Shown here in pieces: positions 28,088 through 60,152 of a DNA stretch of 64,000 nucleotides. The position numbers were made by a program, and so were the translations under genes. Source of the DNA: Escherichia coli (GTDB lineage Bacteria > Pseudomonadota > Gammaproteobacteria > Enterobacterales > Enterobacteriaceae). The DNA lies in assembly GCF_013315695.1 (NCBI RefSeq), contig NZ_CP054353.1; one strand, given 5' to 3'. Positions within the stretch are counted from its first letter, which is position 1. Each line of letters opens with the position of its first letter. The notes beneath the pieces are model-generated. The model had not been told where the DNA came from, made no database searches, and saw nothing but the letters and a program-made list of their open reading frames with translations.

Positions 28088-30708
28088 TTCCTTATTAGCT
28101 TGCTGTCTGCGTCACACTACGACCAAACGTTATCAGATTATTTAATACATTGTTTTTAATACAATTCTGAAACAATCTGAACACCTGATTGGGTTTGAGT
28201 CCATTGCTGGCTACCCACTCAAGGTTGCTCGTAGCTGACTTACTTAAATTACCCAAACAATAGACAGTGTAAACCATTTGTGAGGTTGAGCGTGTTATAT
28301 GGCTGAAATGATCATTTAAGGTAAATATGATAGTTCTGAAATGGCGGGATAAATCCTCCTGTAGAGGTTAAGAGCATCTGCAAGAAGCCAGTTTCACATT
28401 TATAACGCGTGATAAATGAACGCGGTTATTGTCTAATCATTACAGAATTTTTCACATGCAATAAGAGATCCTGCAATTAAGATGATTGCTAAAATTACAT
28501 TGTATTTTTGAAAATGAGCGAAATTTGATAGTCCCAGCTTTGACTTTTGATAATATTATATATGCTACAGTTGTGGGTAAAGAATTTAAGCTAATGAGTT
28601 TGAGCGAAGAATAAATCAAACTGTATCAGTGTTTCGTTAATTAATATGAGTATAAATGCGTTGTGCTTTTATAATAATAAAGCACGAGGAGTTCAGTGGA
28701 ATATCTTTTCCCTTGGGTGATTTTTAATATGATAAACAATATATCTGATCAAGCATCATCATTTCCAGGCACACAACTGAATCAAAGTGATAATTTCCTC
28801 GATTCACTGAGGGAATTTTTCGCGATATTAAATTCCAGTCGTAAGGGTGAGTTGTCTACATGGGACACCATCTACTTGCATCTGATATTAGCAATAAATG
28901 CTGATAGTGATCTCATAAAAAATGATGAGTTGCTAGTGGAAAATATTCCATCAGCGAATTATCAATTTAATATATTTTTTAGTAATGCTTTCGAGATTGA
29001 TGTTAAAAAATATCTTGGCAAATCAGAAGATAACGAAGTTGAAATAAAAGTGGGTAATGAAAGAATTACCATTGGAATACGTAATGTATCGAATGGGAAA
29101 CTTGAAAGACAAAAATTTCTTTTCCCACTGGACTATGAGAATAAATTACAACATCAATTAGACAAGCATTTTACGATTGAATCGCATCCATTATTATACA
29201 GGCATACTATGGGTAGTAAGATTGCGAATGTGATTTTTGAAAAATTATACAGTCGTATTGACTTTAACAAAGAGCAATATATATCCTTTATAAAGGATGC
29301 GTTTATTCATTTTTATGATTATAGCAGGCGATATGCAATTAGTGAGAATATCGCAAAAGACGCTGTAACAAACAATATCGCATTGATGAGTACTTTTTAT
29401 GACAGTGAAAATACGTCAGGTGAGGTTTTAAATAATGATTTTACAGAAGAAGAATCATTTGAAACTGCGTTAAATATCGAGCATGCAATAGTGCTTGGAT
29501 TTGCTGATGATAATTTTGAAACAAAACCTGTTCATTATCAGGATTTATTAACACGATTTAGTGCCTTTCAAGATACCGTGTTTAATTTGTTTCCTGAAAT
29601 GCACTCTTCGCATTACAACGATATTTGTAGCGTAAGTGTGGATATGACAAAGGGAACGCAATGCATGATTCACTTGATGGTGAATGAAGAAGTTCTTATG
29701 TCGTTGCCTGTTCCAGTTGCCATGATGGTACGTGAAGATGCAACTAATTTAGTCAATCTTAAAACACTACTCAATGATGGTTGCTTTATTAAATATAGTC
29801 ATTTTAATGACGTGGCATTAATAAAGCAAAACATAAATAATCTCTATTTATCACACACTATTGTGAATGAAAGCATATTGAAAAAATGTTGTTTTGAAAA
29901 CGGCAGTTTAGGTGATGTTAAAATCACAAATAGCAATGTAATAAACAGTGTATTCAAAAATATTTCGTTTAGATCTGTTAAAATTAACAACGTAAATACT
30001 CATTCTTTAAAATTTATTAACTGCCATTTTTTCAATGTTGATATGATAAGAGTTAATTTCAGTAAATGTCTTTTTCATGACTGTAGTATGCATGGTGTCA
30101 AGATAAAACCATGGTTGCCAGTAAAATGGACAAAAGAATTAATAAATGATTATTTGTATGGCTGTTTACTATCTCTGTACTCTATCTGTGCAAGAGATAT
30201 ATATAATATGATCGCCGGTAATAACGTGAAGGTTGCTGCGGATGCTTTCCTTGAAATACTTTATTCTCTTAAAAATAAATATTGTATTAAACTATTAAGC
30301 GCTCAGGATCGGGCGTTTATATACGAATTTGCAAGAATGATCTTCGCTTATATTAATGACAAAAGCATTGAAATCTTATTACTTTCTTGTTTTGCGGCTG
30401 CTGACCAAAAAGCAATCCAGAGGTATATACCTCAGGCGCAAGATGGGGAAGACTTTAGGAATCATTTACAATATAAGTTGGCTCTTCCCACTCATTAATG
30501 TTGCCGGCACAACATAATAGGGCAGGTAAGCGGTGCTCCATAATGAAACCAATATCCGGTTACGAAACAGATAATTGTACAGGCTTATGTACCTGTTTTT
30601 GACACAATGAGATGATTTCCTAAACTGATCAAAACCTTCTTCCCAACATGGCATATCAGTCCGATAATGCTTTAGAGATCGAAGGCTTAACAAACAAGGA
30701 GAACGATC
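28088..30708. other. AT-rich inserted island between ybjP and ybjQ (absent from K-12 as recalled)
   Basis: Abrupt drop in GC content relative to flanking core genes; holds a single 600-aa ORF with no K-12 counterpart at this locus. Confidence 0.6.
28696..30498 (+). CDS. Pentapeptide-repeat protein, candidate EspX-like type III secretion effector
   Basis: 600-aa ORF from GTG at 28696 with SD gaggag 6 nt upstream. C-terminal third has tandem 5-residue repeats with a central F/L/M (SNVIN SVFKN ISFRS VKINN ... LKFIN CHFFN VDMIR VNFSK CLFHD). AT-rich codon usage. Confidence 0.6.
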   Translation: MEYLFPWVIFNMINNISDQASSFPGTQLNQSDNFLDSLREFFAILNSSRKGELSTWDTIYLHLILAINADSDLIKNDELLVENIPSANYQFNIFFSNAFEIDVKKYLGKSEDNEVEIKVGNERITIGIRNVSNGKLERQKFLFPLDYENKLQHQLDKHFTIESHPLLYRHTMGSKIANVIFEKLYSRIDFNKEQYISFIKDAFIHFYDYSRRYAISENIAKDAVTNNIALMSTFYDSENTSGEVLNNDFTEEESFETALNIEHAIVLGFADDNFETKPVHYQDLLTRFSAFQDTVFNLFPEMHSSHYNDICSVSVDMTKGTQCMIHLMVNEEVLMSLPVPVAMMVREDATNLVNLKTLLNDGCFIKYSHFNDVALIKQNINNLYLSHTIVNESILKKCCFENGSLGDVKITNSNVINSVFKNISFRSVKINNVNTHSLKFINCHFFNVDMIRVNFSKCLFHDCSMHGVKIKPWLPVKWTKELINDYLYGCLLSLYSICARDIYNMIAGNNVKVAADAFLEILYSLKNKYCIKLLSAQDRAFIYEFARMIFAYINDKSIEILLLSCFAAADQKAIQRYIPQAQDGEDFRNHLQYKLALPTH

Positions 30709-39930: not shown

Positions 39931-40026
39931 GATCACACCTTTTAAAGTTATATTTAATATACATGTTTAAGGTTAAGACGCTTAACGCGGGGATAAAAGG
40001 GATTTTTCATGCAACTTTAAGGGAGA

Positions 40027-40040
40027 TTGATTTAGCGCAA
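40027..40040 (-). promoter_or_regulatory. Candidate FNR site in hcp-hcr promoter
   Basis: TTGAT-N4-GCAA near-consensus FNR box (ttgatttagcgcaa) upstream of hcp; hcp is known to be FNR-activated. Confidence 0.3.
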
Positions 40041-40073
40041 TTTTGGCGGCAGGGATCTACCGCCAGAGAGGTA

Positions 40074-40973
40074 TTACGCGGAAAAAAAGGCGATGAGGAT
40101 CGGCACTAACAGGCTGAGAATAAAACCGTGAACAATCGCCGCCGGGACCATATCCAGCCCGCCAGTACGTTGAAGAACGGGCAGGGTGAAATCCATCGAC
40201 GTCGCACCGCATAAGCCCAGTGCAGTAGAGCGGCTACGGCGAATCAGCCCAGGGATTAACATAATAGCAATCAGCTCACGGGCCAGATCATTAAAAAACG
40301 CCGCGCTCCCGATTACTGGACCAAAAGATTCGGTCAATAAAATACCGGAAAGAGAATACCAGCCGAAACCGGAGGCCATTGCCAGCGCGGTATTGATGGG
40401 AAGATCAAGAATAAAGGCGTTAATTAAACCACCAATTAATGAACTGGCAACCACCACCACGGCGACAATCATTCCCCGGCGATTAAGGACAATCTGCTTT
40501 AAGGTCATGCCATTATTGCGCAACTGAATACCGACGAGGAAAAGTAGCAGAATTAAGGTGTATTCACTGGCTTTGGTCGCGTGTTGTAAGAAAGCCAGTC
40601 CACTCAGACCAATGGCAAAACCAATCACTACTACGCCGCACAGTTTTAGCGACTCCAGTGCCATCGCAATACGCGACGGGAGTTTTTCTTGATGATGGTG
40701 GTTGCGCCATGGCAGGCCGCGCTCCAGCCACAACAACGCAATAATATTGCAGAGTAAAATAATGGTAATGCTGACGGAGGAATAATGCAGAATCGCCAAC
40801 AGGTTACTGGCGAGGTTATCGAGAAACGCCAGACTGATACCCATAAAAAAGAGAATGAGGTAAACCATCCAACTTAATAGCTGATTAATAACTCTTAATG
40901 CAGCTTTTTGGCGAAGCGGAATGAGGTAACCCACAATCAGGGGAACCAGAATGATTAACAGCCCAGAAAACAT
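40074..40973 (-). CDS. lysO: Lysine exporter LysO (YbjE)
   Basis: 299-aa product from internal ATG (MFSGLLIILVPLIVGYL...); multi-TMS; last K-12-collinear gene before the IS. Confidence 0.88.
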   Translation of the reverse strand: MFSGLLIILVPLIVGYLIPLRQKAALRVINQLLSWMVYLILFFMGISLAFLDNLASNLLAILHYSSVSITIILLCNIIALLWLERGLPWRNHHHQEKLPSRIAMALESLKLCGVVVIGFAIGLSGLAFLQHATKASEYTLILLLFLVGIQLRNNGMTLKQIVLNRRGMIVAVVVVASSLIGGLINAFILDLPINTALAMASGFGWYSLSGILLTESFGPVIGSAAFFNDLARELIAIMLIPGLIRRSRSTALGLCGATSMDFTLPVLQRTGGLDMVPAAIVHGFILSLLVPILIAFFSA

Positions 40974-41312
40974 GAAAACCCAGTCCTTGCAAAGATGAAG
41001 TCGAAATGCGCGATGACACACTACTGAAAGCGGAAGGACGAGTAAAGTTGCAATTAAAAGGAAATGTTATGCAAAAGGAGCAGTAGAGTATTCGTTTTCA
41101 TTTAAAGATGTTCTTGCGCTTTAATTACAAACCGCACCGGTGTTGGTGGCGTCAAAATCGCTGAAGCGTTCCCCGAAGGCCGGGGCAGCCCACATGGATG
41201 TGGGCTGAGGGCGCGTCTTACAAGGATAATGAGATGGACGCTCCAGATTTTACGGTATCAAAGTACCAGACTGGATCGTTGCAATACGTCCTGAAAAATT
41301 AGGGGCGTCCAC

Positions 41313-42338
41313 ATGAAAGTATCAACTCTTGGTATCGACCTGGCAAAGAACGTTTTTCAGCTTCATGGTGTCGATCATGAAGGCCATACTATTTTGCGTA
41401 AAAAGCTCACCCGGGCTAAGTTTGTTCAGTTTGTGATTCAACTGGAACCTTGTCTGATTGGCATGGAAGCCTGCTCATCCAGTCATTATTTTGCGCGATT
41501 ATTCACCCGCTATGGTCATGAGGTAAAACTCATACCTCCGCAGTATGTGAAGCCTTATGTGAAAACGAACAAGACGGATGCAGCAGATGCTGAAGCAATC
41601 TGCGAAGCGGTAACCCGTCCGAATATGCGTTTTGTTCAGATAAAAACCGAAGAGCAGCAGGCCGTTTTAGCGTTACACACTGAACGGGGAATACTTATCC
41701 GTGAGCGGATTGCCTGTGCCAATAGTTTAAGAGCCACACTTGCTGAGTTTGGTATTACGATTGCGGCCGGACAAAGCCATTTAACACGTGAGCTGCCAGC
41801 CATTCTGGAGGATGGCGAAAATGGTTTATCTCCCTTTGTCAGAACCAGCATCTACAGACAGTCTAAACATATCCGGGAACTTGAAGAACAAGTTAAACAG
41901 GTAGAAGAAGCTCTGGCCTCCTGGTATAGAACGCAGGAAGCCTGCCAGAGAATGGCCAAGATCCCGGGGGTTGGCATGCTAACGGCCACTTATGTGGTAG
42001 CAGCAGTGGGTAATGCCCGACAATTCAGTACCGCAAAGCAGTTCGCTTCATGGCTGGGGCTGACACCAAAGGAACATTCCAGCGGCGGGAAACAGCAACT
42101 GGGAGGGATCAGCAAACGTGGAGATGGATATTTCCGATACCTGCTGGTTCACGGCGCACGCGCACTTACCGCCTGGGTCAACCGAAACGGCGCGGTTGAG
42201 GAGAATTCCTGGCTTCAGGGACTCCTTGAGCGGAAGCACTACAATGTAGCTGTTGTCGCCATGGCGGCAAAAACAGCGAGGATCATGTGGTCAATGTTGT
42301 CACACAATACTGAATATCAACCTCGGCAGCTCGCCTGA
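41313..42338 (+). CDS. IS110-family transposase/recombinase (RuvC-like DEDD N-domain plus C-terminal Tnp domain)
   Basis: 341-aa ORF starting MKVSTLGIDLAKNVFQLHGVD with conserved acidic residues (GIDLAKN, GMEACSS); typical IS110/IS1111 recombinase length and architecture; agggg SD upstream. Confidence 0.85.
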   Translation: MKVSTLGIDLAKNVFQLHGVDHEGHTILRKKLTRAKFVQFVIQLEPCLIGMEACSSSHYFARLFTRYGHEVKLIPPQYVKPYVKTNKTDAADAEAICEAVTRPNMRFVQIKTEEQQAVLALHTERGILIRERIACANSLRATLAEFGITIAAGQSHLTRELPAILEDGENGLSPFVRTSIYRQSKHIRELEEQVKQVEEALASWYRTQEACQRMAKIPGVGMLTATYVVAAVGNARQFSTAKQFASWLGLTPKEHSSGGKQQLGGISKRGDGYFRYLLVHGARALTAWVNRNGAVEENSWLQGLLERKHYNVAVVAMAAKTARIMWSMLSHNTEYQPRQLA

Positions 42339-42384
42339 CACAAGGTCAGTCAATCTGACGAGGTGCTGAAAAAAAGTTAACGTC

Positions 42385-42565
42385 CTGGTAGGTGCAGGTG
42401 ACTTCAGAAGATGGCAAAACAGGTAAGACCGCAGGCAGGATACACCGAGAGGTAACAAGGGCAAGTTAGCCCGTAGAGGATGATTGGTACCTGCCTGGCG
42501 GATTTCATCATGGTTCGGGATAAAAATCCCATCAGAAACCGGATATATGGCTGCACCTACCCGTT
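42385..42565 (+). ncRNA. Candidate structured RNA in IS110 right flank (possible bridge/guide RNA); strand and ends unverified
   Basis: Perfect 10-bp inverted repeat gtaggtgcag (42388-42397) / ctgcacctac (42551-42560) enclosing a nested ccgcaggcagg (42429-42439) / cctgcctggcgg (42490-42501) pair and a ggga-taaaaa-tccc hairpin; no convincing coding potential. Confidence 0.2.
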
Positions 42566-42839
42566 TTATTACATAACTGAAGAAAGCATTGCATTCCGGG
42601 AGCGTCCATATATGTTACCTCGCGCCCGACCCGGTAGCCGTAAGGGATAAGCCGAGGGCACCGCGCAGCGGCGATTTTGTTCGCCAGAGCCCGGGGGTGC
42701 AGGGGGCGGCGGCGATTGGCCGCCCCCTGCGCGCTCCTTGCGCCAGTGATTATATGAAGCAATGCACATGACAGGAGCGCAACAGGATGAGAGACTGAAC
42801 TATTCTCGTTATTTTCGGACCTGATGACATTAATTAATT

Positions 42840-42923
42840 TTAAAATATCATCTTAAATACGCCAGTCACCACCAGTAGCCCAATCAGGAAAATAATCAAT
42901 ACAGCCCAGAGTATAATTTTCAT
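42840..42923 (-). CDS. yohP: Small membrane protein YohP (27 aa)
   Basis: Manual translation MKIILWAVLIIFLIGLLVVTGVFKMIF; below the ORF-track length cutoff; adjacent to mdtQ as in K-12. Confidence 0.8.
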   Translation of the reverse strand: MKIILWAVLIIFLIGLLVVTGVFKMIF

Positions 42924-43146
42924 TGGCGTTCCTTTATTTGTGAGTGCTGAATAAGTATAGGAAAAAACGAAGCCCTTTGCCGCTATTCATAAACGATTAA
43001 GATAAATCGGAAGATATCATTCGCTTAGTGTATATTTTTCTGGATATGTCGTTTTATTGCCACTGATGTATTGCCACGCGAAACTAAAAAATATATCGCA
43101 ACACACGGTAATCTCCGCGCACCTTTTCTTACCTGATTATTCCCCC

Positions 43147-44583
43147 ATGAATCGTGATTCTTTTTATCCAGCCATCGCCTGTTTTCCGCTGTTACTGATG
43201 CTAGCCGGGTGTGCGCCTATGCATGAAACCCGCCAGGCGTTAAGCCAGCAAACACCCGCGGCACAAGTTGACACCGCATTACCCACGGCGCTGAAAAATG
43301 GTTGGCCAGACAGCCAATGGTGGCTGGAGTATCACGATAATCAACTCACCTCATTAATTAATAACGCACTACAGAACGCACCGGATATGCAGGTGGCTGA
43401 ACAGCGCATTCAGCTGGCTGAAGCCCAGGCGAAGGCAGTTGCCACTCAGGATGGTCCACAGCTCGACTTTTCTGCGGATATGGAGCGGCAAAAAATGTCG
43501 GCAGAAGGGTTAATGGGGCCGTTTGCTTTGAACGATCCTGCCGCAGGTACGACCGGTCCGTGGTACACCAACGATACTTTTGGCTTAACGGCGGGCTGGC
43601 ATCTCGATATCTGGGGAAAGACTCGGGCGGAGGTTACTGCTCGCCTCGGTACGGTTAAAGCACGGGCGGCGGAACGCGAGCAAACCCGCCAATTGCTGGC
43701 TGGCAGCGTAGCCCGCCTGTACTGGGAGTGGCAAACCCAGGCGGCGTTAAACACGGTCTTACAGCAAATCGAAAAAGAGCAGAACACCATTATCGCCACC
43801 GATCGCCAGCTATATCAGAACGGGATTACTTCTGCAGTTGAAGGTGTGGAAACCGATATTAATGCCAGCAAAACCCGGCAGCAGCTCAACGATGTCGCGG
43901 GGAAAATGAAAATTATTGAGGCACGGTTAAGTGCGCTCACCAACCACCAGACAAAGTCATTGAAGCTTAAACCGGTCGCGTTGCCGAAAGTGGCAAGTCA
44001 GCTTCCTGATGAACTCGGGTACTCCTTACTGGCCCGGCGGGCAGATTTGCAGGCGGCGCACTGGTACGTTGAGTCATCGTTAAGCACTATTGATGCGGCA
44101 AAAGCGGCATTTTATCCTGACATCAACCTGATGGCCTTTCTGCAACAGGATGCGTTGCACTTAAGCGATCTGTTCCGTCATTCCGCGCAGCAAATGGGCG
44201 TTACGGCAGGCCTGACGCTACCCATTTTCGATAGTGGTCGTCTTAACGCCAATCTCGATATCGCAAAAGCCGAAAGCAACTTGTCTATCGCCAGCTACAA
44301 CAAAGCGGTGGTTGAAGCGGTAAATGACGTGGCGCGGGCGGCCAGCCAGGTTCAGACACTGGCGGAGAAAAACCAGCATCAGGCGCAAATTGAGCACGAT
44401 GCCTTGCGTGTGGTAGGTCTTGCGCAGGCGCGCTTTAACGCGGGCATCATTGCTGGTTCCCGCGTCAGCGAAGCCAGAATCCCCGCGCTGCGTGAGCGGG
44501 CCAATGGCCTGTTATTGCAAGGGCAGTGGCTGGATGCCTCCATTCAACTCACCGGTGCGCTGGGCGGGGGTTACAAACGCTGA
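43147..44583 (+). CDS. mdtQ: Outer-membrane efflux lipoprotein (NodT/OMF family) MdtQ (YohG), apparently intact
   Basis: 478-aa product from internal ATG (MNRDSFYPAIACFPLLLMLAGCAP..., lipobox LAGC); uninterrupted reading frame, unlike the K-12 pseudogene. Confidence 0.85.
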   Translation: MNRDSFYPAIACFPLLLMLAGCAPMHETRQALSQQTPAAQVDTALPTALKNGWPDSQWWLEYHDNQLTSLINNALQNAPDMQVAEQRIQLAEAQAKAVATQDGPQLDFSADMERQKMSAEGLMGPFALNDPAAGTTGPWYTNDTFGLTAGWHLDIWGKTRAEVTARLGTVKARAAEREQTRQLLAGSVARLYWEWQTQAALNTVLQQIEKEQNTIIATDRQLYQNGITSAVEGVETDINASKTRQQLNDVAGKMKIIEARLSALTNHQTKSLKLKPVALPKVASQLPDELGYSLLARRADLQAAHWYVESSLSTIDAAKAAFYPDINLMAFLQQDALHLSDLFRHSAQQMGVTAGLTLPIFDSGRLNANLDIAKAESNLSIASYNKAVVEAVNDVARAASQVQTLAEKNQHQAQIEHDALRVVGLAQARFNAGIIAGSRVSEARIPALRERANGLLLQGQWLDASIQLTGALGGGYKR

Positions 44584-44635
44584 TGATATGCGCCTTCTAT
44601 ACTTAACATTTATTCAGCGTTAAGTGGAGAACTCG

Positions 44636-45397
44636 ATGGCACAGGTCGCGATAATTACCGCCTCCGATTCGGGGATCGGCAAAGAGTGCGCGTTATTACT
44701 GGCGCAGCAGGGGTTTGATATTGGCATTACCTGGCACTCAGATGAAGAAGGGGCAAAAGATACCGCGCGTGAGGTAGTTAGCCACGGCGTACGTGCGGAG
44801 ATCGTGCAACTGGATCTCGGCAATCTACCAGAAGGGGCACTGGCGCTGGAGAAACTTATTCATCGGCTGGGGCGTATTGATGTGCTGGTGAATAATGCGG
44901 GCGCAATGACCAAAGCGCCGTTTCTTGATATGGCTTTCGATGAGTGGCGCAAGATTTTTACCGTTGATGTCGATGGTGCATTTTTATGCTCGCAAATTGC
45001 TGCCCGCCAGATGGTGAAGCAAGGGCAGGGCGGTCGCATCATCAACATTACATCGGTACATGAACATACGCCGCTGCCGGATGCCAGCGCCTACACAGCC
45101 GCTAAACATGCGCTCGGCGGGTTAACCAAAGCAATGGCGTTGGAGTTGGTCAGGCATAAAATTTTGGTGAACGCAGTCGCACCTGGGGCGATCGCCACGC
45201 CAATGAACGGCATGGATGACGGCGATGTGAAGCCCGACGCGGAGCCTTCGATTCCCTTGCGACGTTTTGGCACAACGCATGAGATTGCCAGTCTGGTGGT
45301 ATGGCTTTGTTCGGAGGGCGCAAATTACACCACCGGGCGGTCGTTGATAGTGGATGGCGGCTTTATGTTGGCGAATCCGCAGTTCAACCCAGAATAG
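44636..45397 (+). CDS. yohF: Short-chain dehydrogenase/reductase YohF
   Basis: 253-aa product from internal ATG (MAQVAIITASDSGIGKECA...); SDR fold with TGxxxGIG and YxxxK. Confidence 0.9.
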   Translation: MAQVAIITASDSGIGKECALLLAQQGFDIGITWHSDEEGAKDTAREVVSHGVRAEIVQLDLGNLPEGALALEKLIHRLGRIDVLVNNAGAMTKAPFLDMAFDEWRKIFTVDVDGAFLCSQIAARQMVKQGQGGRIINITSVHEHTPLPDASAYTAAKHALGGLTKAMALELVRHKILVNAVAPGAIATPMNGMDDGDVKPDAEPSIPLRRFGTTHEIASLVVWLCSEGANYTTGRSLIVDGGFMLANPQFNPE

Positions 45398-45427
45398 CGC
45401 AGTGAGGTGCGTGGTTATTTCATTGGG

Positions 45428-45506
45428 TTAGGCCAGATAAGACACGCCAGCGTCGCATCAGGCATGGTGCACCGGATGTCGGATGCGGCGCGAACACCTT
45501 ATCCAG
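45428..45506. repeat. REP-like palindromic element
   Basis: gccagataagacacgcc...gcatcaggc...cggatgcggcgcgaacaccttatcc motifs between yohF and yohD. Confidence 0.45.
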
Positions 45507-45516
45507 GGCAATAGTT

Positions 45517-46095
45517 TTACGCCTGATGATCCGGCTTTTTCTTCCCGCGCCGTTTCAGCCACCAGCGCACGCCTACCACCAGAACCACGACCAGAATCAA
45601 CCAGACCCAGTGCTTCAAATGCTGGTCGAGATTGTGCAACCACGGCGCAATCACCTGCCCACCAGCGTAACCGATAGTGGTAAAAATCAGCGACCAGGCA
45701 AATGCGCCGAGAATATTCAGCGGCAGAAAGATTTTCGGCGGCAGCTGGCTGGCACCAATCAGCGTCGGGCCAATGACCCGAAAGCCATACATAAAACGCG
45801 TACCAATGACAAACAGATACGGATGGCGTTGGATAAGTTTCTGCGCCCGCTCAATTTTATCCTGATGTTTCGAGAAACGGCGTAACAGCTTGCCGCCAAA
45901 CCGCCGCCCGCACAGATAAAGCACCTGGTCGCCAATCATGCCGCCAAGCGCCACAGAAAGTACCACCAGCGGGAACTTTAATAGCCCCTGATGTGCCGCA
46001 ACGCCTCCCAGCAAAGTCACGGTTTCACCTTCCGCCAGGCTACCGATCACCAGCGCGGCATAACCATATTGTGAGATGAGTGTATTGAGATCCAT
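45517..46095 (-). CDS. yohD: DedA-family inner membrane protein YohD
   Basis: 192-aa product from internal ATG (MDLNTLISQYGYAALVIGSL...). Confidence 0.9.
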   Translation of the reverse strand: MDLNTLISQYGYAALVIGSLAEGETVTLLGGVAAHQGLLKFPLVVLSVALGGMIGDQVLYLCGRRFGGKLLRRFSKHQDKIERAQKLIQRHPYLFVIGTRFMYGFRVIGPTLIGASQLPPKIFLPLNILGAFAWSLIFTTIGYAGGQVIAPWLHNLDQHLKHWVWLILVVVLVVGVRWWLKRRGKKKPDHQA

Positions 46096-46264
46096 AGGAC
46101 AGTCTGTCTCCCTTTGCTTGCCTGTAAGCATACACCCTGTGAATCATTCACGCTGAAAAAGGACGTACATCAGACGGTGCAAATTACATGAGCGAACAAA
46201 AAATAATCACAAGCTGACTTATACTTGAACTGTCAGGTTCATGAACTCACAACAAGGGGGCGGT

Positions 46265-46852
46265 ATGAGCCATGTCTGGGGACTGTTTTCCCATCCCGAT
46301 CGTGAAATGCAGGTGATTAATCGCGAAAACGAAACGATTTCTCACCATTACACCCACCACGTTTTGCTGATGGCGGCGATTCCGGTGATTTGCGCCTTCA
46401 TTGGCACTACACAGATTGGCTGGAATTTTGGCGATGGCACTATCCTGAAGTTATCCTGGTTTACCGGACTGGCGCTGGCTGTCTTGTTTTACGGCGTTAT
46501 GCTGGCTGGGGTTGCGGTGATGGGGCGGGTCATCTGGTGGATGGCGCGTAATTATCCGCAGCGTCCGTCACTTGCGCACTGCATGGTCTTCGCGGGCTAC
46601 GTTGCAACTCCGCTGTTTTTAAGCGGTCTGGTGGCGCTTTACCCGCTGGTCTGGTTGTGTGCGCTGGTCGGCACGGTGGCGCTGTTTTACACCGGCTACC
46701 TGCTGTATCTCGGTATTCCGAGCTTCCTGAATATCAACAAAGAGGAAGGACTTAGCTTCTCCAGTTCGACACTGGCGATAGGCGTGCTGGTGCTGGAAGT
46801 GCTGCTCGCCCTTACCGTTATACTATGGGGCTACGGTTATCGTTTGTTCTAG
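46265..46852 (+). CDS. yohC: Yip1-family inner membrane protein YohC
   Basis: 195-aa product from internal ATG (MSHVWGLFSHPDREMQ...). Confidence 0.88.
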   Translation: MSHVWGLFSHPDREMQVINRENETISHHYTHHVLLMAAIPVICAFIGTTQIGWNFGDGTILKLSWFTGLALAVLFYGVMLAGVAVMGRVIWWMARNYPQRPSLAHCMVFAGYVATPLFLSGLVALYPLVWLCALVGTVALFYTGYLLYLGIPSFLNINKEEGLSFSSSTLAIGVLVLEVLLALTVILWGYGYRLF

Positions 46853-47025
46853 AAAGTTCTTTTGCGCTGCATTGCTGGCGTAAATGTCAGCAATGCAGCA
46901 TTTCCTCACGATTCTTCTTTGACGATCGCACTTTTTGCTCGTTATGATGGCGTCGCTAGCCTCAGTAAATCCTTACTCCGGCGGTGCGCAACCCGTGCGC
47001 GTGAACCACTATCTGAATGCTCATC

Positions 47026-47958
47026 ATGCCGAAATTTCGAGTTTCTTTATTTAGCCTGGCCCTGATGCTGGCTGTGCCTTTTGCACCGCAGGCCGTTGCG
47101 AAAACGGCAGCCGCTACCACCGCGTCACAACCGGAAATTGCCTCCGGTAGCGCGATGATTGTTGATCTGAATACCAACAAAGTGATCTATTCGAACCACC
47201 CGGATCTGGTGCGTCCGATTGCGTCTATCAGCAAATTAATGACCGCGATGGTTGTGCTGGATGCACGACTGCCGCTGGATGAAAAACTAAAAGTGGATAT
47301 CAGCCAGACGCCGGAGATGAAAGGGGTCTATTCGCGCGTACGACTGAACAGCGAAATCAGCCGTAAAGATATGCTGTTGCTGGCGCTGATGTCTTCAGAA
47401 AACCGCGCGGCGGCAAGCCTTGCGCACCATTATCCCGGTGGTTACAAAGCCTTTATTAAGGCGATGAACGCGAAAGCGAAATCGCTCGGAATGAACAACA
47501 CGCGCTTTGTTGAACCAACCGGATTGTCGGTGCATAACGTTTCAACCGCCCGTGACTTAACCAAACTGCTCATTGCCAGCAAACAATATCCGCTGATCGG
47601 GCAGTTAAGTACCACCCGGGAAGATATGGCAACCTTCTCTAACCCGACGTATACGCTGCCGTTCCGCAATACTAACCATCTGGTGTATCGCGATAACTGG
47701 AATATTCAGTTAACTAAAACCGGCTTTACCAATGCGGCGGGCCATTGTCTGGTGATGCGTACGGTTATCAATAATAAACCGGTGGCGCTGGTAGTGATGG
47801 ACGCGTTTGGCAAATATACCCATTTTGCCGATGCCAGCCGCCTGCGTACCTGGATTGAGACCGGTAAAGTGATGCCTGTTCCGGCAGCAGCGTTGAGCTA
47901 TAAAAAACAAAAAGCCGCCCAGATGGCGGCGGCGGGGCAGACGGCACAGAACGATTAA
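47026..47958 (+). CDS. pbpG: D-alanyl-D-alanine endopeptidase PBP7
   Basis: 310-aa product from internal ATG ([17 protein letters not shown]...) with signal peptide and SxxK motif (SISK). Confidence 0.92.
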
Positions 47959-47996
47959 ATGAATGACGGATGGCGATACTCTGCCATCCGTAATTT

Positions 47997-49712
47997 TTAC
48001 TCCACTTCCTGCCAGTTTTTCCGCTTACTGGTTTTACCGATCCCCGGATTCATACTGTTGGTCGGATCGTTCTCGCGATAGAACTTCTGCAACGTCTCCG
48101 GTGCTTTATACAAATGACCGACGTTATGCTCGGCAGGGTATTGCGCGCCGCGCTGCTGCAGCAGTTCCAGCATCTGTTCTTTCAACGCATGCACATCCAC
48201 GCCTTTTTTCACGATGTAATCCTGATGGAAGACATAGCACATAAAATGGCCGTAATAGAGCTTGTGCACCAGCTGGCTGTCGATCTCCGGCGGTAAATGC
48301 TCATACCATTCGGTGTCGTTACGCCGCAGAGCGATATCCAGCGCCAGAATGTCTTCGACTTCATCGGAATGCACAGCCTGATAACGAATTGCTGCGCCCG
48401 CAGCGGCGAAACGGTGTAAAAACGCTTTGCTGCCTTCCTCCGGCGTACAGACAAAGAAATCGCCCTCGGCCTGTTTGAAATAATCCACCAGCCACGATTT
48501 GGCTTCACCGACGCCATCGCCCGCCATTTTTAACAGCAGATGATGCTCGTATTTATCGCGCCAGTTTTTCATGCGTGGCGGTAAATGGCTGGGGAACAGG
48601 TGACCGAATTTTTGCATTGCACGGTCGGTAAAATGCGGACGGAAGAATTTCACTTTCTCCAGCATCGCATCGGTGCGTCCCTTGAGATTAAAGAAGAACG
48701 GCATCTTGTCGGTGCCTAACTTATCAATCATCAGGAAGGTGTCTTTGCCGTATTTTTCCGCAATATCGTAGATATCCCGGTGCATATATTCCCCGGCAAC
48801 CGGCAAATTTTCGAAATTAGCCAGAATATGACGGCGGATTTCGGTCAGCACTTCCGGCTGGTTGGTGCCGATATAAAACACCTGCTGATTTTTTTCCGCT
48901 TCGAAGGTATCAAGACGTACCGCAAAGACGGCCAGCTTACCTGCGCAACCAGAAGATTCAAATAACCGATCCGGATCAGCGTTATAACGTGCGGGCGTGT
49001 CGGCTTCAATATCACGAACGCGGTGGACATAGTCATAATCGTGGGCGTGACGACCATCGTGGCGCACATCGTCATCTTTGATGCGATCGTCATCCAGCTT
49101 GCTAAGGATCTGCTCCGGCGTTTCGCCCAGATCAATCCCCAGATGGTTAACCAGCGTCAGCTTGCCATCTTCATTTATACGCGCGAATAACGACATTTCG
49201 GTATACGCCGGGCCACGTTGCACCAGCGAACCACCAGAGTTATTACAGATACCGCCGATGACCGATGCGCCTATACACGATGATCCAATCACCGAGTGCG
49301 GTTCGCGTCCCAGCGGTTTGAGGGCTTTTTCCAGTGAATAGAGCGTGGTGCCCGGATAGGCCAGCACCTGTTCGCCCTTGCCGAGAACGTGTAGCTTGTC
49401 GAGACGCAGGGTGCTGATGATCACGATATCGCGATCATAGTCGTTACCGTTTGGCGTAGATCCTTCGGTCAGACCTGTATTGGCGGCCTGCATGAGAATA
49501 ATTTTGTCGGCGGTGACGCAGGCTTTCAGCACCCGCCACAATTCCAGTAGTGAGCCAGGGAAAACGACAGCCAGCGCGTCGCCCTGACCAGAACGGAAGC
49601 CCTTGCGATAGCGGGCCGTTTTTGCGGGATCGGTGAGCAGGTGTGAATGACCGACCAGACGGGCAAGTTCATTCAAAAAGGCTTTATTATCAGTTGTTGT
49701 CATGGAAGACAT
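47997..49712 (-). CDS. dld: FAD-dependent D-lactate dehydrogenase (quinone) Dld
   Basis: 571-aa product from internal ATG (MSSMTTTDNKAFLNELARL...). Confidence 0.93.
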   Translation of the reverse strand: MSSMTTTDNKAFLNELARLVGHSHLLTDPAKTARYRKGFRSGQGDALAVVFPGSLLELWRVLKACVTADKIILMQAANTGLTEGSTPNGNDYDRDIVIISTLRLDKLHVLGKGEQVLAYPGTTLYSLEKALKPLGREPHSVIGSSCIGASVIGGICNNSGGSLVQRGPAYTEMSLFARINEDGKLTLVNHLGIDLGETPEQILSKLDDDRIKDDDVRHDGRHAHDYDYVHRVRDIEADTPARYNADPDRLFESSGCAGKLAVFAVRLDTFEAEKNQQVFYIGTNQPEVLTEIRRHILANFENLPVAGEYMHRDIYDIAEKYGKDTFLMIDKLGTDKMPFFFNLKGRTDAMLEKVKFFRPHFTDRAMQKFGHLFPSHLPPRMKNWRDKYEHHLLLKMAGDGVGEAKSWLVDYFKQAEGDFFVCTPEEGSKAFLHRFAAAGAAIRYQAVHSDEVEDILALDIALRRNDTEWYEHLPPEIDSQLVHKLYYGHFMCYVFHQDYIVKKGVDVHALKEQMLELLQQRGAQYPAEHNVGHLYKAPETLQKFYRENDPTNSMNPGIGKTSKRKNWQEVE

Positions 49713-49907
49713 TTTCCACTCCTTGTGGTGGCGAAAAAATATCACAAACTAGAATAGCGCCTTGTATGACAATTCAGCGAGTGAATATTTTGAAAATTCA
49801 GACAATAAACTGAGCATTCTTTTTCTCTCTCTATCATGCTTATGGCAAACTACGGTTTTTGCACCATTTTCGCTGCCTCGTCGGGCAACAGAGGAAGAAA
49901 AATCCAT

Positions 49908-52205
49908 ATGAAATGGCTATGTTCAGTAGGAATCGCGGTGAGTCTGGCCCTGCAGCCAGCACTGGCGGATGATTTATTCGGCAACCATCCATTAACGCCC
50001 GAAGCGCGGGATGCGTTCGTCACCGAACTGCTTAAGAAAATGACAGTTGATGAGAAAATTGGTCAGCTGCGTTTAATCAGCGTCGGCCCGGATAATCCGA
50101 AAGAGGCGATCCGCGAGATGATCAAAGACGGGCAGGTTGGGGCGATTTTCAACACCGTAACCCGTCAGGATATCCGCGCCATGCAGGATCAGGTGATGGA
50201 ATTAAGCCGCCTGAAAATTCCTCTTTTCTTTGCTTACGACGTGCTGCACGGTCAGCGCACGGTGTTCCCGATTAGCCTCGGTCTGGCCTCGTCTTTTAAC
50301 CTCGATGCGGTGAAAACAGTCGGGCGTGTCTCTGCTTATGAAGCGGCAGATGATGGCCTGAATATGACCTGGGCACCGATGGTCGATGTTTCGCGCGATC
50401 CGCGCTGGGGACGTGCTTCCGAAGGTTTTGGCGAAGATACGTATCTCACCTCAATAATGGGTAAAACCATGGTGCAAGCGATGCAGGGTAAAAGTCCGGC
50501 AGATCGCTACTCGGTGATGACCAGCGTCAAACACTTTGCCGCTTACGGCGCGGTAGAAGGCGGTAAAGAGTACAACACCGTCGATATGAGTCCGCAGCGC
50601 CTGTTTAATGATTATATGCCGCCGTACAAAGCGGGGCTGGACGCAGGCAGCGGCGCGGTGATGGTGGCGCTGAACTCGCTGAACGGCACGCCAGCCACCT
50701 CCGACTCCTGGCTGCTGAAAGATGTTCTGCGCGACCAGTGGGGCTTTAAAGGCATCACCGTTTCCGATCACGGCGCAATCAAAGAGCTGATTAAACATGG
50801 CACAGCGGCAGACCCGGAAGATGCGGTGCGCGTGGCGCTGAAATCCGGCATCAACATGAGTATGAGCGACGAGTATTACTCGAAGTATCTGCCTGGGTTG
50901 ATCAAATCCGGCAAAGTGACGATGGAAGAGCTGGATGACGCTGCCCGTCATGTACTGAACGTTAAATATGATATGGGGTTGTTTAACGACCCGTACAGCC
51001 ATCTCGGTCCGAAAGAGTCTGACCCGGTGGATACCAATGCCGAAAGCCGCCTGCACCGCAAAGAAGCGCGTGAAGTGGCACGCGAAAGCCTGGTGTTGCT
51101 GAAAAACCGTCTCGAAACGTTACCGCTGAAAAAATCAGCCACCATTGCGGTGGTTGGGCCATTGGCGGACAGCAAACGTGACGTGATGGGCAGCTGGTCC
51201 GCAGCCGGTGTTGCCGATCAATCTGTTACTGTGCTAACAGGGATTAAAAACGCCGTCGGTGAAAACGGTAAAGTGCTGTACGCCAAAGGGGCGAACGTCA
51301 CCAGTGACAAAGGCATTATCGATTTCCTGAATCAGTATGAAGAGGCGGTCAAAGTCGACCCGCGCTCGCCGCAAGAGATGATTGATGAAGCGGTGCAAAC
51401 CGCGAAGCAATCTGATGTGGTGGTGGCTGTGGTCGGTGAAGCTCAGGGGATGGCGCACGAGGCCTCCAGCCGTACCGATATCACTATTCCGCAAAGCCAA
51501 CGTGACTTGATTGCGGCGCTGAAAGCCACCGGTAAACCACTGGTGCTGGTGCTGATGAACGGACGTCCGCTGGCGCTGGTGAAAGAAGATCAGCAGGCTG
51601 ATGCGATTCTGGAAACCTGGTTTGCGGGGACTGAAGGCGGTAATGCAATTGCCGATGTATTGTTTGGCGATTATAACCCGTCCGGCAAGCTGCCGATGTC
51701 CTTCCCGCGTTCTGTCGGGCAGATCCCGGTGTACTACAGCCATCTGAATACCGGTCGCCCGTATAATGCCGACAAGCCGAACAAATACACTTCGCGTTAT
51801 TTTGATGAAGCTAACGGGGCGCTTTATCCGTTCGGCTATGGTCTGAGCTATACCACTTTCACCGTCTCTGATGTGAAACTTTCTGCGCCGACCATGAAGC
51901 GTGACGGCAAAGTGACCGCCAGCGTGCAGGTGACGAACACCGGTAAGCGCGAAGGGGTGACGGTAGTTCAGATGTACCTGCAGGATGTGACGGCTTCCAT
52001 GAGTCGCCCGGTAAAACAGCTGAAAGGCTTTGAGAAAATCACCCTGAAACCGGGCGAAACCCAGACTGTCAGCTTCCCGATTGATATCGAGGCGCTGAAG
52101 TTCTGGAATCAACAGATGAAATATGACGCCGAGCCTGGCAAGTTCAATGTCTTTATCGGCACTGATTCCGCACGCGTTAAGAAAGGCGAGTTTGAGTTGC
52201 TGTAA
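49908..52205 (+). CDS. bglX: Periplasmic beta-glucosidase BglX (GH3)
   Basis: 765-aa product from ATG at 49908 (MKWLCSVGIAVSLALQPALA...) with signal peptide; GH3 family. Confidence 0.93.
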   Translation: MKWLCSVGIAVSLALQPALADDLFGNHPLTPEARDAFVTELLKKMTVDEKIGQLRLISVGPDNPKEAIREMIKDGQVGAIFNTVTRQDIRAMQDQVMELSRLKIPLFFAYDVLHGQRTVFPISLGLASSFNLDAVKTVGRVSAYEAADDGLNMTWAPMVDVSRDPRWGRASEGFGEDTYLTSIMGKTMVQAMQGKSPADRYSVMTSVKHFAAYGAVEGGKEYNTVDMSPQRLFNDYMPPYKAGLDAGSGAVMVALNSLNGTPATSDSWLLKDVLRDQWGFKGITVSDHGAIKELIKHGTAADPEDAVRVALKSGINMSMSDEYYSKYLPGLIKSGKVTMEELDDAARHVLNVKYDMGLFNDPYSHLGPKESDPVDTNAESRLHRKEAREVARESLVLLKNRLETLPLKKSATIAVVGPLADSKRDVMGSWSAAGVADQSVTVLTGIKNAVGENGKVLYAKGANVTSDKGIIDFLNQYEEAVKVDPRSPQEMIDEAVQTAKQSDVVVAVVGEAQGMAHEASSRTDITIPQSQRDLIAALKATGKPLVLVLMNGRPLALVKEDQQADAILETWFAGTEGGNAIADVLFGDYNPSGKLPMSFPRSVGQIPVYYSHLNTGRPYNADKPNKYTSRYFDEANGALYPFGYGLSYTTFTVSDVKLSAPTMKRDGKVTASVQVTNTGKREGVTVVQMYLQDVTASMSRPVKQLKGFEKITLKPGETQTVSFPIDIEALKFWNQQMKYDAEPGKFNVFIGTDSARVKKGEFELL

Positions 52206-52214
52206 TGCTTTAGC

Positions 52215-52240
52215 AAGGGCGCGACGTTTGCGCCCTTTGC
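52215..52240 (+). terminator. Candidate terminator hairpin downstream of bglX
   Basis: aagggcgcg-acgtt-tgcgcccttt hairpin; weak T-tract. Confidence 0.4.
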
Positions 52241-52279
52241 CTGATGTTCATATCTTAACTTGCTGAATTTTCGCCCTTT

Positions 52280-52314
52280 GTAGGCCGGATAAGGCGCTCG
52301 CGCCGCATCCGGCA
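52280..52314. repeat. REP element
   Basis: gtaggccggataaggcgctcgcgccgcatccggcag. Confidence 0.55.
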
Positions 52315-52456
52315 GGAAACGCCGGACCGAATATGCCTCTTAAGTATTTATCTGATTCTGTAACTGAATCCGTCCGCTCAGGCTAACCCTGTCATTATCA
52401 ACTATGCTTTTCTCTTAATTCGCTGAAAACAACAGTAAAAGAATGAGGAAAGCATC

Positions 52457-53374
52457 ATGCCACTCTCAAAGGTCTGGGCAGGTTCACTGGTTTTGTTGGC
52501 AGCCGTGAGCCTGCCGCTGCACGCGGCTTCCCCAGTTAAAGTCGGTTCAAAAATCGATACCGAAGGCGCGCTGCTCGGCAATATCATTTTGCAGGTGCTG
52601 GAAAGCCACGGCGTACCAACGGTCAATAAAGTGCAACTTGGAACGACTCCTGTGGTGCGCGGGGCGATTACTTCCGGTGAACTGGATATCTATCCGGAAT
52701 ATACCGGCAATGGCGCGTTTTTCTTTAAAGATGAAAACGATGCGGCATGGAAAAATGCCGGGCAGGGCTACGAGAAAGTCAAAAAGCTCGATGCAGAGCA
52801 AAACAAGTTAATCTGGCTGACGCCCGCACCTGCGAATAACACCTGGACCATCGCCGTGCGTCAGGATGTGGCAGAGAAAAATAAACTCACTTCGCTTGCT
52901 GACCTGAGTCGTTACCTGAAAGAGGGCGGCACCTTCAAACTGGCTGCCTCAGCAGAGTTTATCGAACGCGCCGATGCGTTACCCGCGTTTGAAAAAGCCT
53001 ATGGCTTTAAGCTCGGTCAGGATCAGTTGCTGTCACTGGCTGGTGGCGATACGGCAGTGACGATCAAAGCCGCTGCTCAGCAAACCTCTGGCGTTAATGC
53101 CGCAATGGCTTACGGTACCGACGGTCCGGTCGCGGCGCTGGGGCTGCAAACCTTAAGCGATCCGCAAGGCGTGCAACCTATCTACGCACCTGCACCAGTG
53201 GTGCGTGAATCGGTGTTGAAGGAGTATCCGCAAATGGCACAGTGGCTACAGCCAGTCTTCGCCAGCCTCGATGCAAAAACATTGCAGCAACTGAATGCCA
53301 GCATTGCTGTGGAAGGACTGGATGCCAAAAAAGTGGCTGCCGACTACCTGAAACAAAAAGGGTGGACGAAGTAA
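52457..53374 (+). CDS. osmF: Glycine betaine/osmoprotectant ABC transporter substrate-binding protein OsmF (YehZ)
   Basis: 305-aa ORF with signal peptide; first gene of the yehZYXW operon. Confidence 0.9.
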   Translation: MPLSKVWAGSLVLLAAVSLPLHAASPVKVGSKIDTEGALLGNIILQVLESHGVPTVNKVQLGTTPVVRGAITSGELDIYPEYTGNGAFFFKDENDAAWKNAGQGYEKVKKLDAEQNKLIWLTPAPANNTWTIAVRQDVAEKNKLTSLADLSRYLKEGGTFKLAASAEFIERADALPAFEKAYGFKLGQDQLLSLAGGDTAVTIKAAAQQTSGVNAAMAYGTDGPVAALGLQTLSDPQGVQPIYAPAPVVRESVLKEYPQMAQWLQPVFASLDAKTLQQLNASIAVEGLDAKKVAADYLKQKGWTK

Positions 53375-53380
53375 TTTCCC

Positions 53381-54538
53381 GTGACTTATCTACGTATTAA
53401 TCCTGTTCTGGCGCTGTTGCTGTTGCTGACGGCAATCGCAGCGGCGCTGCCGTTTATCAGTTACGCGCCTAATCGTTTAGTTTCGGGTGAGGGGCGTCAT
53501 CTCTGGCAGCTGTGGCCGCAAACGATCTGGATGCTGGTGGGCGTTGGTTGCGCCTGGATGACAGCCTGTTTTATTCCCGCTAAAAAAGGCAGCATTTTTG
53601 CACTCATTCTGGCGCAATTCGTCTTCGTATTGCTGGTGTGGGGAGCAGGAAAGGCGGCGACACAACTGGCACAAAATGGCAGTGCGCTGGCGCGTACCAG
53701 CCTCGGCAGTGGTTTCTGGCTGGCTGCGGCGCTGGCATTGCTGGCCTGTAGCGATGCCATCCGCCGAATCTCCACGCATCCGCTGTGGCGCTGGTTGTTG
53801 CATATGCAGATTGCCATTATTCCGCTGTGGTTGCTGTACTCCGGCACGCTTAACGATCTCTCGCTAATGAAAGAATACGCCAACCGTCAGGATGTGTTTG
53901 ACGACGCGCTGGCACAACATCTGACGTTGCTGTTTGGTGCGGTGCTGCCTGCGTTAGTGATTGGTGTGCCGTTGGGCGTCTGGTGCTACTTTTCCACTGC
54001 GCGGCAGGGGGCGATTTTTTCGCTACTCAATGTCATTCAGACCGTGCCTTCGGTGGCGCTCTTTGGCCTGTTGATTGCGCCGCTTGCCGCGCTGGTTACG
54101 GCCTTTCCGTGGCTGGGTAAGCTCGGCATAGCAGGAACCGGAATGACACCCGCACTGATTGCGCTGGTGCTCTATGCCTTGCTGCCGCTGGTGCGCGGCG
54201 TGGTAGTCGGCTTGAACCAGATCCCGCGCGATGTGCTGGAGAGCGCCAGAGCGATGGGCATGAGCGGGGCGCAGCGATTCCTGCATGTTCAGTTACCGCT
54301 GGCGTTACCGGTATTTCTGCGTAGCCTGCGGGTGGTGATGGTGCAAACCGTCGGCATGGCGGTGATTGCGGCGTTAATCGGCGCAGGCGGTTTTGGTGCG
54401 CTGGTTTTCCAGGGGCTGCTAAGCAGTGCCATTGATTTAGTGTTGCTGGGGGTGATCCCGGTAATTGTTCTGGCGGTGCTGATCGATGCGCTGTTCGATT
54501 TGCTTATCGCACTGCTGAAGGTGAAACGTAATGATTGA
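53381..54538 (+). CDS. yehY: ABC transporter permease YehY
   Basis: 385-aa multi-TMS ORF; synteny. Confidence 0.9.
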
Positions 54539-55457
54539 ATTTAGCCATGTCAGCAAACTGTTCGGCGCACAAAAAGCCGTTAACGATCTCAATCTCAATT
54601 TTCAGGAAGGGAGTTTTTCGGTGCTGATTGGCACTTCTGGCTCCGGCAAATCCACCACCCTGAAAATGATTAACCGCCTGGTGGAGCATGACAGCGGCGT
54701 GATCCGCTTTGCCGGAGAAGAAATTCGCTCGCTGCGAGTACTGGAGTTGCGCCGCCGGATGGGCTATGCCATTCAATCTATTGGCCTGTTTCCCCACTGG
54801 AGCGTGGCGCAAAATATTGCCACCGTGCCGCAATTACAAAAATGGTCACGGGCGCGGATCGACGATCGTATCGACGAATTAATGGCGCTACTGGGGCTGG
54901 AGCCAAATTTGCGTGAGCGTTATCCGCATCAGCTTTCCGGTGGTCAGCAGCAACGTGTGGGAGTGGCGCGCGCACTGGCTGCCGATCCGCAAGTCTTACT
55001 GATGGATGAACCTTTTGGCGCGCTGGACCCGGTAACGCGCGGCGCGTTGCAACAAGAGATGACGCGCATACACCGTTTGCTGGGGCGTACCATTGTGCTG
55101 GTCACTCATGATATTGATGAGGCGCTACGGCTGGCAGAACATCTGGTATTGATGGATCACGGTGAAGTGGTGCAGCAGGGCAATCCGCTGACGATGCTGA
55201 CTCGTCCGGCGAATGATTTTGTTCGCCAGTTTTTTGGACGTAGTGAACTGGGTGTGCGCCTGCTTTCGTTACGTAGTGTGGCGGATTACGTGCGTCGCGA
55301 AGAACGTGCAGAAGGTGAGGCACTGGCAGAAGAGATGACGCTACGCGATGCGCTCTCCCTGTTTGTCGCGCGGGGATGCGAGGTGCTGCCGGTGATGAAC
55401 ACGCAGGGCCAGCCTTGCGGCACGCTGCATTTTCAGGATCTGCTGGTGGAGGCGTAA
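54531..55457 (+). CDS. yehX: ABC transporter ATPase YehX (with C-terminal CBS-like region)
   Basis: 308-aa ORF with Walker [10 protein letters not shown] and LSGGQQQRV signature. Confidence 0.9.
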
Positions 55458-55461
55458 ACGT

Positions 55462-56193: not shown

Positions 56194-56281
56194 AGGTATA
56201 ACCTGCGAGCATGACGCCACCAATTCCGCCTAACGCCATAAACAGGAACAGGGCGATGACTCCAATTTTAGCTATGCGCAT
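56174..56281 (-). CDS. yohO: Small membrane protein YohO (35 aa)
   Basis: Manual translation [35 protein letters not shown]; below ORF-track cutoff; overlaps the yehW 3' end on the opposite strand. Confidence 0.7.
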
Positions 56282-56340
56282 AATGCACTCCTTATGTTAA
56301 CGAAAGGATTGTACAGTAAAGCGCATTTGTTAACGAATCA

Positions 56341-57030: not shown

Positions 57031-57062
57031 GGGTAAACTAACTGATTTTACAAGTTTTTATT

Positions 57063-58349: not shown

Positions 58350-58382
58350 TAAACCTCCCAGACGTCCAGGAGCATTAACAGG

Positions 58383-58637: not shown

Positions 58638-58655
58638 GCCAACCTCATAAAATTT

Positions 58656-58790: not shown

Positions 58791-58793
58791 TCT

Positions 58794-59072: not shown

Positions 59073-59120
59073 ACGCTGCTGCGAATACCACCCCCAGAGT
59101 TACGATTGCATCAGGCCAGC

Positions 59121-60151: not shown

Positions 60152-60152
60152 A

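Follow-up and report, generated by a model that had tools for sequence, protein, structure and literature searches.

A TRIP1-targeted insertion sequence of the IS1111 group at the junctions of a dif-centred chromosomal inversion in Escherichia coli

In the 64,000-nucleotide stretch of Escherichia coli contig NZ_CP054353.1 analysed here (the window) the gene lysO, also known as ybjE, is joined to yohP across an insertion sequence (IS), and the IS is lodged within a repeat of the TRIP1 family. This is one of the two junctions of a terminus-spanning inversion of 1.3 to 1.6 Mb, which very probably arose by homologous recombination across a block made up of the IS and TRIP1 together, a route favoured by exchange within the body of the IS taken along with a census of complete genomes. 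The inversion itself and its repeat-mediated nature are already known (Wang et al. 2017, PMC5372343; Goodall et al. 2021, PMC8347550; Li et al. 2024, PMC10888264).

Window positions 407-41227 align forward to K-12 MG1655 876,704-915,111, covering rimO to lysO and part of the lysO-aqpZ spacer, and positions 42612-57030 align in reverse to 2,229,293 down to 2,214,909, from yohP to mlrA; the interval 40973-42923 is exactly the lysO-yohP intergenic region. A sequence-only reading of the window had described K-12 order from rimO to ybjE left of 41.0 kb with aqpZ missing after ybjE, and both statements are borne out, the former by the forward alignment and the K-12 annotation and the latter by the absence of aqpZ from the window. 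The order it gave on the right, yohP to mlrA in reverse of K-12, is upheld by the reverse alignment, but collinearity stops at about 57,030 inside mlrA, a second breakpoint that it did not mention. The features at and around the junction are as follows.

40074-40973, minus strand: lysO (ybjE) coding sequence, which closes the K-12 19.7-min block, is annotated lysO in strain MS 21-1 and aligns to K-12 up to 915,111.
41132-41227: left 96 bp of TRIP1, of the TRIP1a (lysO-aqpZ) type; the alignment to the K-12 lysO-aqpZ spacer ends at 41227.
41228-42613, plus strand: IS110/IS1111-type insertion sequence of 1386 bp, with boundaries taken from alignments to the K-12 empty sites.
41234-41244, plus strand: left subterminal inverted repeat ATGGACGCTCC, a perfect 11-bp reverse complement of 42599-42609.
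41313-42338, plus strand: transposase/recombinase gene of the DEDD type, 341 amino acids, by Pfam and NCBIfam profile matches.
42339-42613, plus strand: non-coding region of 275 nt 3' of the transposase gene, presumed from family knowledge to be the seekRNA/bridge-RNA region.
42599-42609, plus strand: right subterminal inverted repeat GGAGCGTCCAT, the perfect 11-bp partner of 41234-41244.
42614-42790: right part of TRIP1, about 177 bp, of the TRIP1c (dusC-yohP) type by identity and diagnostic sites.
42840-42923, minus strand: yohP coding sequence, which opens the inverted K-12 48-min block.
43147-44583, plus strand: mdtQ (yohG) coding sequence, intact, 478 amino acids.

TRIP1 is the repeat of Rudd (1999), of which TRIP1a lies between ybjE and aqpZ, 158 bp upstream of ybjE, and TRIP1c between yohG (mdtQ)/yohP and yohI (dusC) (Li et al. 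2024). By alignment both K-12 intergenic regions hold one GC-rich repeat, about 270 bp long, inversely oriented at the two loci and with about 94% identity between them, at positions matching those of Li et al. Across the IS in the window the type of the TRIP1 flank changes exactly, as read from diagnostic sites. On the left the 128-bp segment 41100-41227 has 93.8% identity to the K-12 TRIP1a and 90.7% to TRIP1c, and on the right the identity of segment 42615-42800 is 100% with the K-12 dusC-yohP copy as against 93.2% for the lysO-aqpZ copy. TRIP1a homology ends at 41227 (...TACAAGGAT) and TRIP1c homology restarts at 42614 (GTTACCTCGCGCCC...), at the same nucleotide position of the repeat.

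The insertion site is in the hairpin loop of TRIP1-family repeats, between ...TTTTACAGGGAT and GTTACCTCGCGCCC..., with the hairpin GGGCGCG/CGCGCCC around the target. The position and orientation of the IS relative to the repeat do not vary across five contexts, namely TRIP1a, TRIP1c, the two hybrid repeats and a TRIP1-like copy in the yegH-asmA spacer, and in all five the junction reads ...ACA(G/A)GGAT, then the IS, then GTTACCTCGCGCCC, with at most the dinucleotide AT shared and no long target duplication. The specificity of the IS for one TRIP1 position and orientation is thereby demonstrated. The yegH-asmA repeat is a sixth TRIP1-like locus, outside the five loci of Li et al. and about 86% identical to TRIP1a over 190 bp; it has the same IS at the same site, adjoining a small Gp49/helix-turn-helix gene pair, and is the commonest context of the IS among the contigs sampled (18 more similar places). 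In CP070152.1 (4,401,910-4,408,935) the whole TRIP1a plus IS unit of 1661 bp is reversed between lysO and aqpZ, and TRIP1 is thus orientation-polymorphic in place; in a genome of that type the TRIP1a and TRIP1c copies would be direct and not inverted repeats. An apparent TRIP1 repeat inside poxB was rejected as an artefact of several loci in one sequence file.

A census was taken of 5426 complete E. coli genomes. The contiguous 3-kb stretch 40500-43500 (lysO-IS-yohP) occurs in 84 of them, including the finished IAI39 and SMS-3-5, as one piece at 98.7% identity or above in all 30 of the matches listed, the closest being MS 21-1 at 99.9%. The arrangements are distributed thus.

lysO-IS-yohP, inverted: 84 genomes.
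dusC-IS-aqpZ, inverted: 84 genomes.
dusC-aqpZ with an empty hybrid TRIP1 (strain KFu014): 1 genome.
lysO-IS-aqpZ, uninverted: 8 genomes.
dusC-IS-yohP, uninverted: 10 genomes.
lysO-yohP without the IS: 0 genomes.

The IS is present at 169 of the 170 junctions of 85 inverted genomes, every one of which has it at one junction or both. What would be the substrate state, with both lysO-IS-aqpZ and dusC-IS-yohP in the K-12 arrangement, is seen in CE10, XJ6.1, JNEC-KY178, Res13-Lact-PER13-34 and LR778147. An IS-deleted lysO-yohP query found no IS-free junction among the complete genomes. That query returned 51 and not 84 genomes at 80% coverage or above, presumably through two-piece matches left unjoined; all 51 full-coverage matches are two pieces split by the IS, and the next-ranked cover 59%. 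An IS-free junction would match as a single full-coverage piece, and so the zero count is independent of the discrepancy between 51 and 84. In NZ_OZ546925.1 (3,604,409-3,607,695) and NZ_OZ546911.1 (4,436,817-4,440,103), close relatives of the window, dusC-IS-aqpZ spans 3287 bp as against about 3386 bp, with around 100 bp missing.

Misassembly is a classic hazard where an IS lies at a synteny break, and the sequence-only reading had named an assembly chimera or concatenated contigs as what would refute it. That explanation, a chimera at a repeated IS or the stitching of unrelated contigs, has next to no probability and is already refuted: 84 complete genomes, produced in many laboratories with a variety of technologies, have the identical contiguous junction, the reciprocal junctions lie at the expected distance, and the inversion has been described in three papers.

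The reciprocal junction, aqpZ next to dusC with a second IS copy, had been predicted and is present in MS 21-1 on the opposite strand, and in 84 genomes in total. MS 21-1, which matches the window at 100% in its unique flanks, carries one IS at 1,899,911-1,901,297 (plus strand) between dusC and aqpZ and the other at about 3,481,797-3,483,183 (minus strand) between lysO and yohP, so oriented oppositely, as is the pair in IAI39, SMS-3-5 and CE10. From junction to junction is 1.58 Mb, with lysO-IS-yohP at about 3.482 Mb. Measured from dif, at 2,682,724-2,682,751, the two IS centres are 782.1 and 799.8 kb away, and the arms thus differ by 17.6 kb. The K-12 loci are 675.7 and 638.5 kb from dif, in accord with the earlier statement that they lie at roughly equal distances on either side of the terminus. 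MS 21-1 has a Mu-like prophage in potG (3,504,584-3,524,486) that the window lacks, and the source of the window is thus closely related to MS 21-1 but distinct from it.

How the exchange took place is best seen between CE10 and IAI39. In CE10 the inverted repeat amounts to about 1553 bp, the 1386-bp IS having 38 bp of TRIP1 on one side and 129 bp on the other, and its two IS copies are six single-nucleotide polymorphisms (SNPs) apart. IAI39 has all four unique flanks 100% identical to those of CE10 and both IS copies identical over 1386 bp, and is inverted where CE10 is not; the pair shows a recent flip between near-identical strains. All six IS SNPs remain linked to the left-end flank, and so the crossover lies between IS position 995 and right-flank position 129, an interval of 521 bp, of which 392 bp belong to the IS and 129 bp to TRIP1. 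This is the one clean informative event for mapping of crossovers from the IS SNPs. Separately, at IS positions 77 and 549 all four allele combinations are found among the copies of MS 21-1, SMS-3-5 and the window, which indicates homologous exchange inside the IS body. The inverted state has reverted or has arisen more than once. The junction IS of the window differs at 4 sites from the MS 21-1 junction copy and at 1 from the MS 21-1 reciprocal copy despite the 100% identical unique flanks, which suggests gene conversion or repeated exchange between the junction copy and the reciprocal copy.

From these data a sequence of steps can be proposed. The IS enters one exact site, in one orientation, in the TRIP1 hairpin loop, and since TRIP1a and TRIP1c face opposite ways on either side of dif, occupation of both yields an inverted repeat of about 1.55 kb. 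Homologous recombination of the RecA type within that repeat would then flip the intervening segment, the products being lysO-IS-yohP, as in the window, and dusC-IS-aqpZ. With breakpoints nearly equidistant from dif the balance of the replichores would be almost unchanged. A dif-centred inversion preserves the polarity of ter sites and of the FtsK orienting polar sequences (KOPS). Balanced replichores and the polarity of ter and KOPS so kept would make the arrangement tolerable and heritable, and by the comparison of CE10 with IAI39 the inversion has flipped again at least once. The sequence-only reading, in which an inversion between two inverted IS copies created the junction, is supported in that the reciprocal junction, the symmetry about dif and the CE10 substrate state have all held; it missed the precise TRIP1 site, the homology block of about 1.55 kb that IS and TRIP1 make together, and the prior publication.

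Three points weigh against recombination across the combined block. The inverted genomes in which IS and inversion go together are not phylogenetically independent and perhaps reflect only 2 or 3 events; the 521-bp interval of the sole well-resolved flip includes the 129-bp TRIP1 part and the boundary of IS and target; and the window genome's own reciprocal junction is presumed from relatives with 100% identical flanks.

The first of the rival accounts is that of Li et al., in which TRIP1a and TRIP1c recombined on their own and the IS entered the hybrids later or is incidental. The two repeats are indeed inverted, about 270 bp long and about 94% identical, in CE10 they are perfectly identical over the 38 and 129 bp around the insertion site, and the 129 bp of TRIP1 fall within the CE10/IAI39 crossover interval. 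Such an account could hold for any one event, but it is nonetheless decidedly unlikely, given that no IS-free lysO-yohP junction occurs in the census although more than 5000 of the genomes are without the IS, that the junctions of the inverted genomes are occupied with the single exception already listed, that an uninverted substrate with both ISs exists in CE10, and that the IS provides 1386 of the roughly 1553 bp of homology. The exception, KFu014 (NZ_CP091712.1, 2,926,899-2,928,896), is the only inverted genome with a clean IS-free hybrid TRIP1 at dusC-aqpZ, which speaks for TRIP1 alone; it keeps a single IS at lysO-yohP. Its empty site reflects either precise loss of the IS or recombination via the right half of TRIP1 with one IS, and its flanks show full identity to SMS-3-5, a strain with both ISs, so that secondary loss is the more parsimonious and is most simply assumed. 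Circle formation by ISEc11, though, left no restored target that could be detected, which makes the route of IS loss in KFu014 uncertain.

The element itself was described as an IS110 copy from the sequence, and profile matches confirm this. The 341-residue open reading frame matches PF01548 (DEDD_Tnp_IS110, 1e-14) and PF02371 (Transposase_20, 4e-24), with the DEDD/RuvC-like part N-terminal and Transposase_20 C-terminal, and scores 359 bits against a cut-off of 140 for NCBIfam NF033542, the "IS110 family RNA-guided transposase". The same 1386-bp unit was found in all 10 IS-bearing loci aligned, and its terminal AT is possibly a shared core dinucleotide; 179 of the 5426 genomes carry the IS, at a median of 2 copies. 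Its subterminal repeats sit 6 and 4 bp in from the ends, and non-coding DNA around the transposase gene amounts to 85 bp upstream versus 275 bp downstream. Joining of the right end to the left is predicted to yield TTGCAT-16 bp-TATAAT, a candidate junction promoter. Subterminal repeats, a long downstream non-coding region and a promoter made on end joining characterise the IS1111 group as Siddiquee et al. describe it (2024, PMC11187229). By its DEDD/Transposase_20 domains, site-specific insertion, subterminal repeats and downstream non-coding region the element is, as judged from sequence, a member of the IS1111 group of the IS110 family. A literature search for a name of the 1386-bp IS gave no matches, nor did one for the phylogroup of MS 21-1.

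Membership of this family suggests that the IS is RNA guided. The 275-nt region folds better than 200 of 200 shuffles (z = -2.9), and within it the first 11 nt of CGAGAGGTAACA, at 42446-42457, can pair with the right target half GTTACCTCGCG at all positions but one (9-mer exact), a length of complementarity equalled in 58 of 2000 shuffles. This segment is, on complementarity, a candidate guide for the right half; the left-half candidate is a 6-mer only and unconvincing. A scan of 40000-44000 against Rfam at a permissive E-value gave a chance miRNA match only, and so no curated family covers the non-coding RNA of the IS.

Such an element could in principle have done more than supply homology: its RNA-guided DEDD recombinase, which is related to the Piv invertase, would have catalysed site-specific exchange between the TRIP1 sites that the two copies occupy. 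The IS110 family does RNA-guided recombination, its relative Piv does inversion, and Durrant et al. in 2024 reportedly found that bridge RNAs allow programmable recombination of target and donor DNA, inversion included; the crossover interval of CE10/IAI39 also includes the boundary of right end and target. Against this, an exchange of left end with right end between inverted copies would give an empty target and a tandem IS dimer, where one IS is observed per junction, the four-gamete pattern inside the IS body is a signature of homologous recombination, and the family has no known activity on two identical right-end/target junctions. A site-specific invertase would confine exchange to core sites and leave matching products, a pattern that the junctions do not show, and there is only a slight chance that the recombinase made them. 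It is likewise very improbable that the paired TRIP1-targeted copies do anything beyond supplying passive homology, whether by recombinase-promoted exchange or as a recurrently flipping, selectable switch of the whole terminus domain placed by RNA-guided choice of dif-symmetric repeats.

Much of this has been met before in parts. In SMS-3-5 a 1.402-Mb inversion is flanked by the inverted repeat "E", of 1606 bp, encoding transposase WP_000868863.1 (Wang et al. 2017), an allele found here in CE10, IAI39, SMS-3-5 and KFu014. In SMS-3-5 the inverted segment includes terE, D, A, C and B, the fork trap staying intact, and IAI39 has an additional rearrangement (Goodall et al. 2021). Among 6725 genomes 68 aqpZ-yohI and 58 ybjE-yohG TRIP1a/1c junctions were counted and attributed to TRIP1 by Li et al. 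(2024), who mention no IS at these junctions and have IS621 and IS110 in the reference list only. Seferbekova et al. (2021) contains nothing specific on the lysO-yohP/dusC-aqpZ inversion. The window shares with the SMS-3-5/IAI39 inversion its breakpoints (ybjE/lysO-yohG/mdtQ and aqpZ-yohI/dusC), the repeat encoding WP_000868863.1 and the span of terE, D, A, C and B, and differs in being of an MS 21-1-like lineage with flanks 1 to 2.6% diverged. The publications on SMS-3-5 and IAI39 speak of "a transposase repeat" or of "TRIP1" without connecting the two.

Among insertion sequences, IS621, which targets repetitive extragenic palindromic (REP) sequences, ISPpu10, ISPa11 and ISEc11 have in common with the present element the DEDD and Transposase_20 domains, the subterminal repeats, the long downstream non-coding region and the end-joining promoter, which is here a predicted one, and the first three also take one exact target position and orientation in the hairpin of a GC-rich intergenic repeat. 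The target here is TRIP1 as opposed to REP or GTGAAAATACTG, and RNA guidance is here a presumption. ISEc11, which is seekRNA-guided, measures 1433-1443 bp with a transposase of 339 residues, compared with 1386 bp and 341 residues.

Symmetric inversions mediated by repeats include that between rrnD and rrnE in E. coli W3110, those between rrn operons in Salmonella Typhi and the IS-flanked ones in Shigella. These likewise come about by homologous recombination between long inverted repeats on opposite replichores and are tolerated by virtue of the symmetry of the origin and dif, a general pattern described by Wang et al. (2017). The present case differs in that a site-specific IS was placed into pre-existing short inverted repeats, and with the IS placed into a fixed TRIP1 pair the breakpoints are the same nucleotide in every lineage.

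Elsewhere in the window three further differences were observed. At about 57,030, inside mlrA (yehV), homology to K-12 and MS 21-1 ends and a prophage starts (57031-64000), with an integrase of 428 amino acids (57063-58349, minus strand; phrog_1, 5e-83) followed by an exonuclease and a dNMP phosphatase; mlrA/yehV is a classic attachment site of lambdoid (Stx1) phages. Some 2.5 kb between ybjP and ybjQ (28100-30647) are without a K-12 counterpart and are annotated as a pentapeptide-repeat pseudogene in MS 21-1. Lastly, the intact mdtQ of the window contrasts with the K-12 pseudogene and with the IAI39 and CE10 copies, each of which contains an internal stop.

What is added to the published picture is modest and opens no new biological question: "repeat E" and "TRIP1a/1c" are one structure, the IS is of the IS1111 type and targets the TRIP1 hairpin loop, and it is found in all 85 inverted genomes, which suggests that crediting the event to TRIP1 alone is incomplete. 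The finding accounts for a synteny break that recurs in 85 of 5426 complete genomes, among them IAI39, SMS-3-5 and MS 21-1-like strains. It offers a clean natural example of how a site-specific and probably RNA-guided IS builds a long inverted repeat out of two short ones dispersed on opposite replichores, a repeat that would permit a megabase-sized, dif-centred and heritable inversion with nucleotide-identical breakpoints; the inversion has flipped back at least once between near-identical strains.

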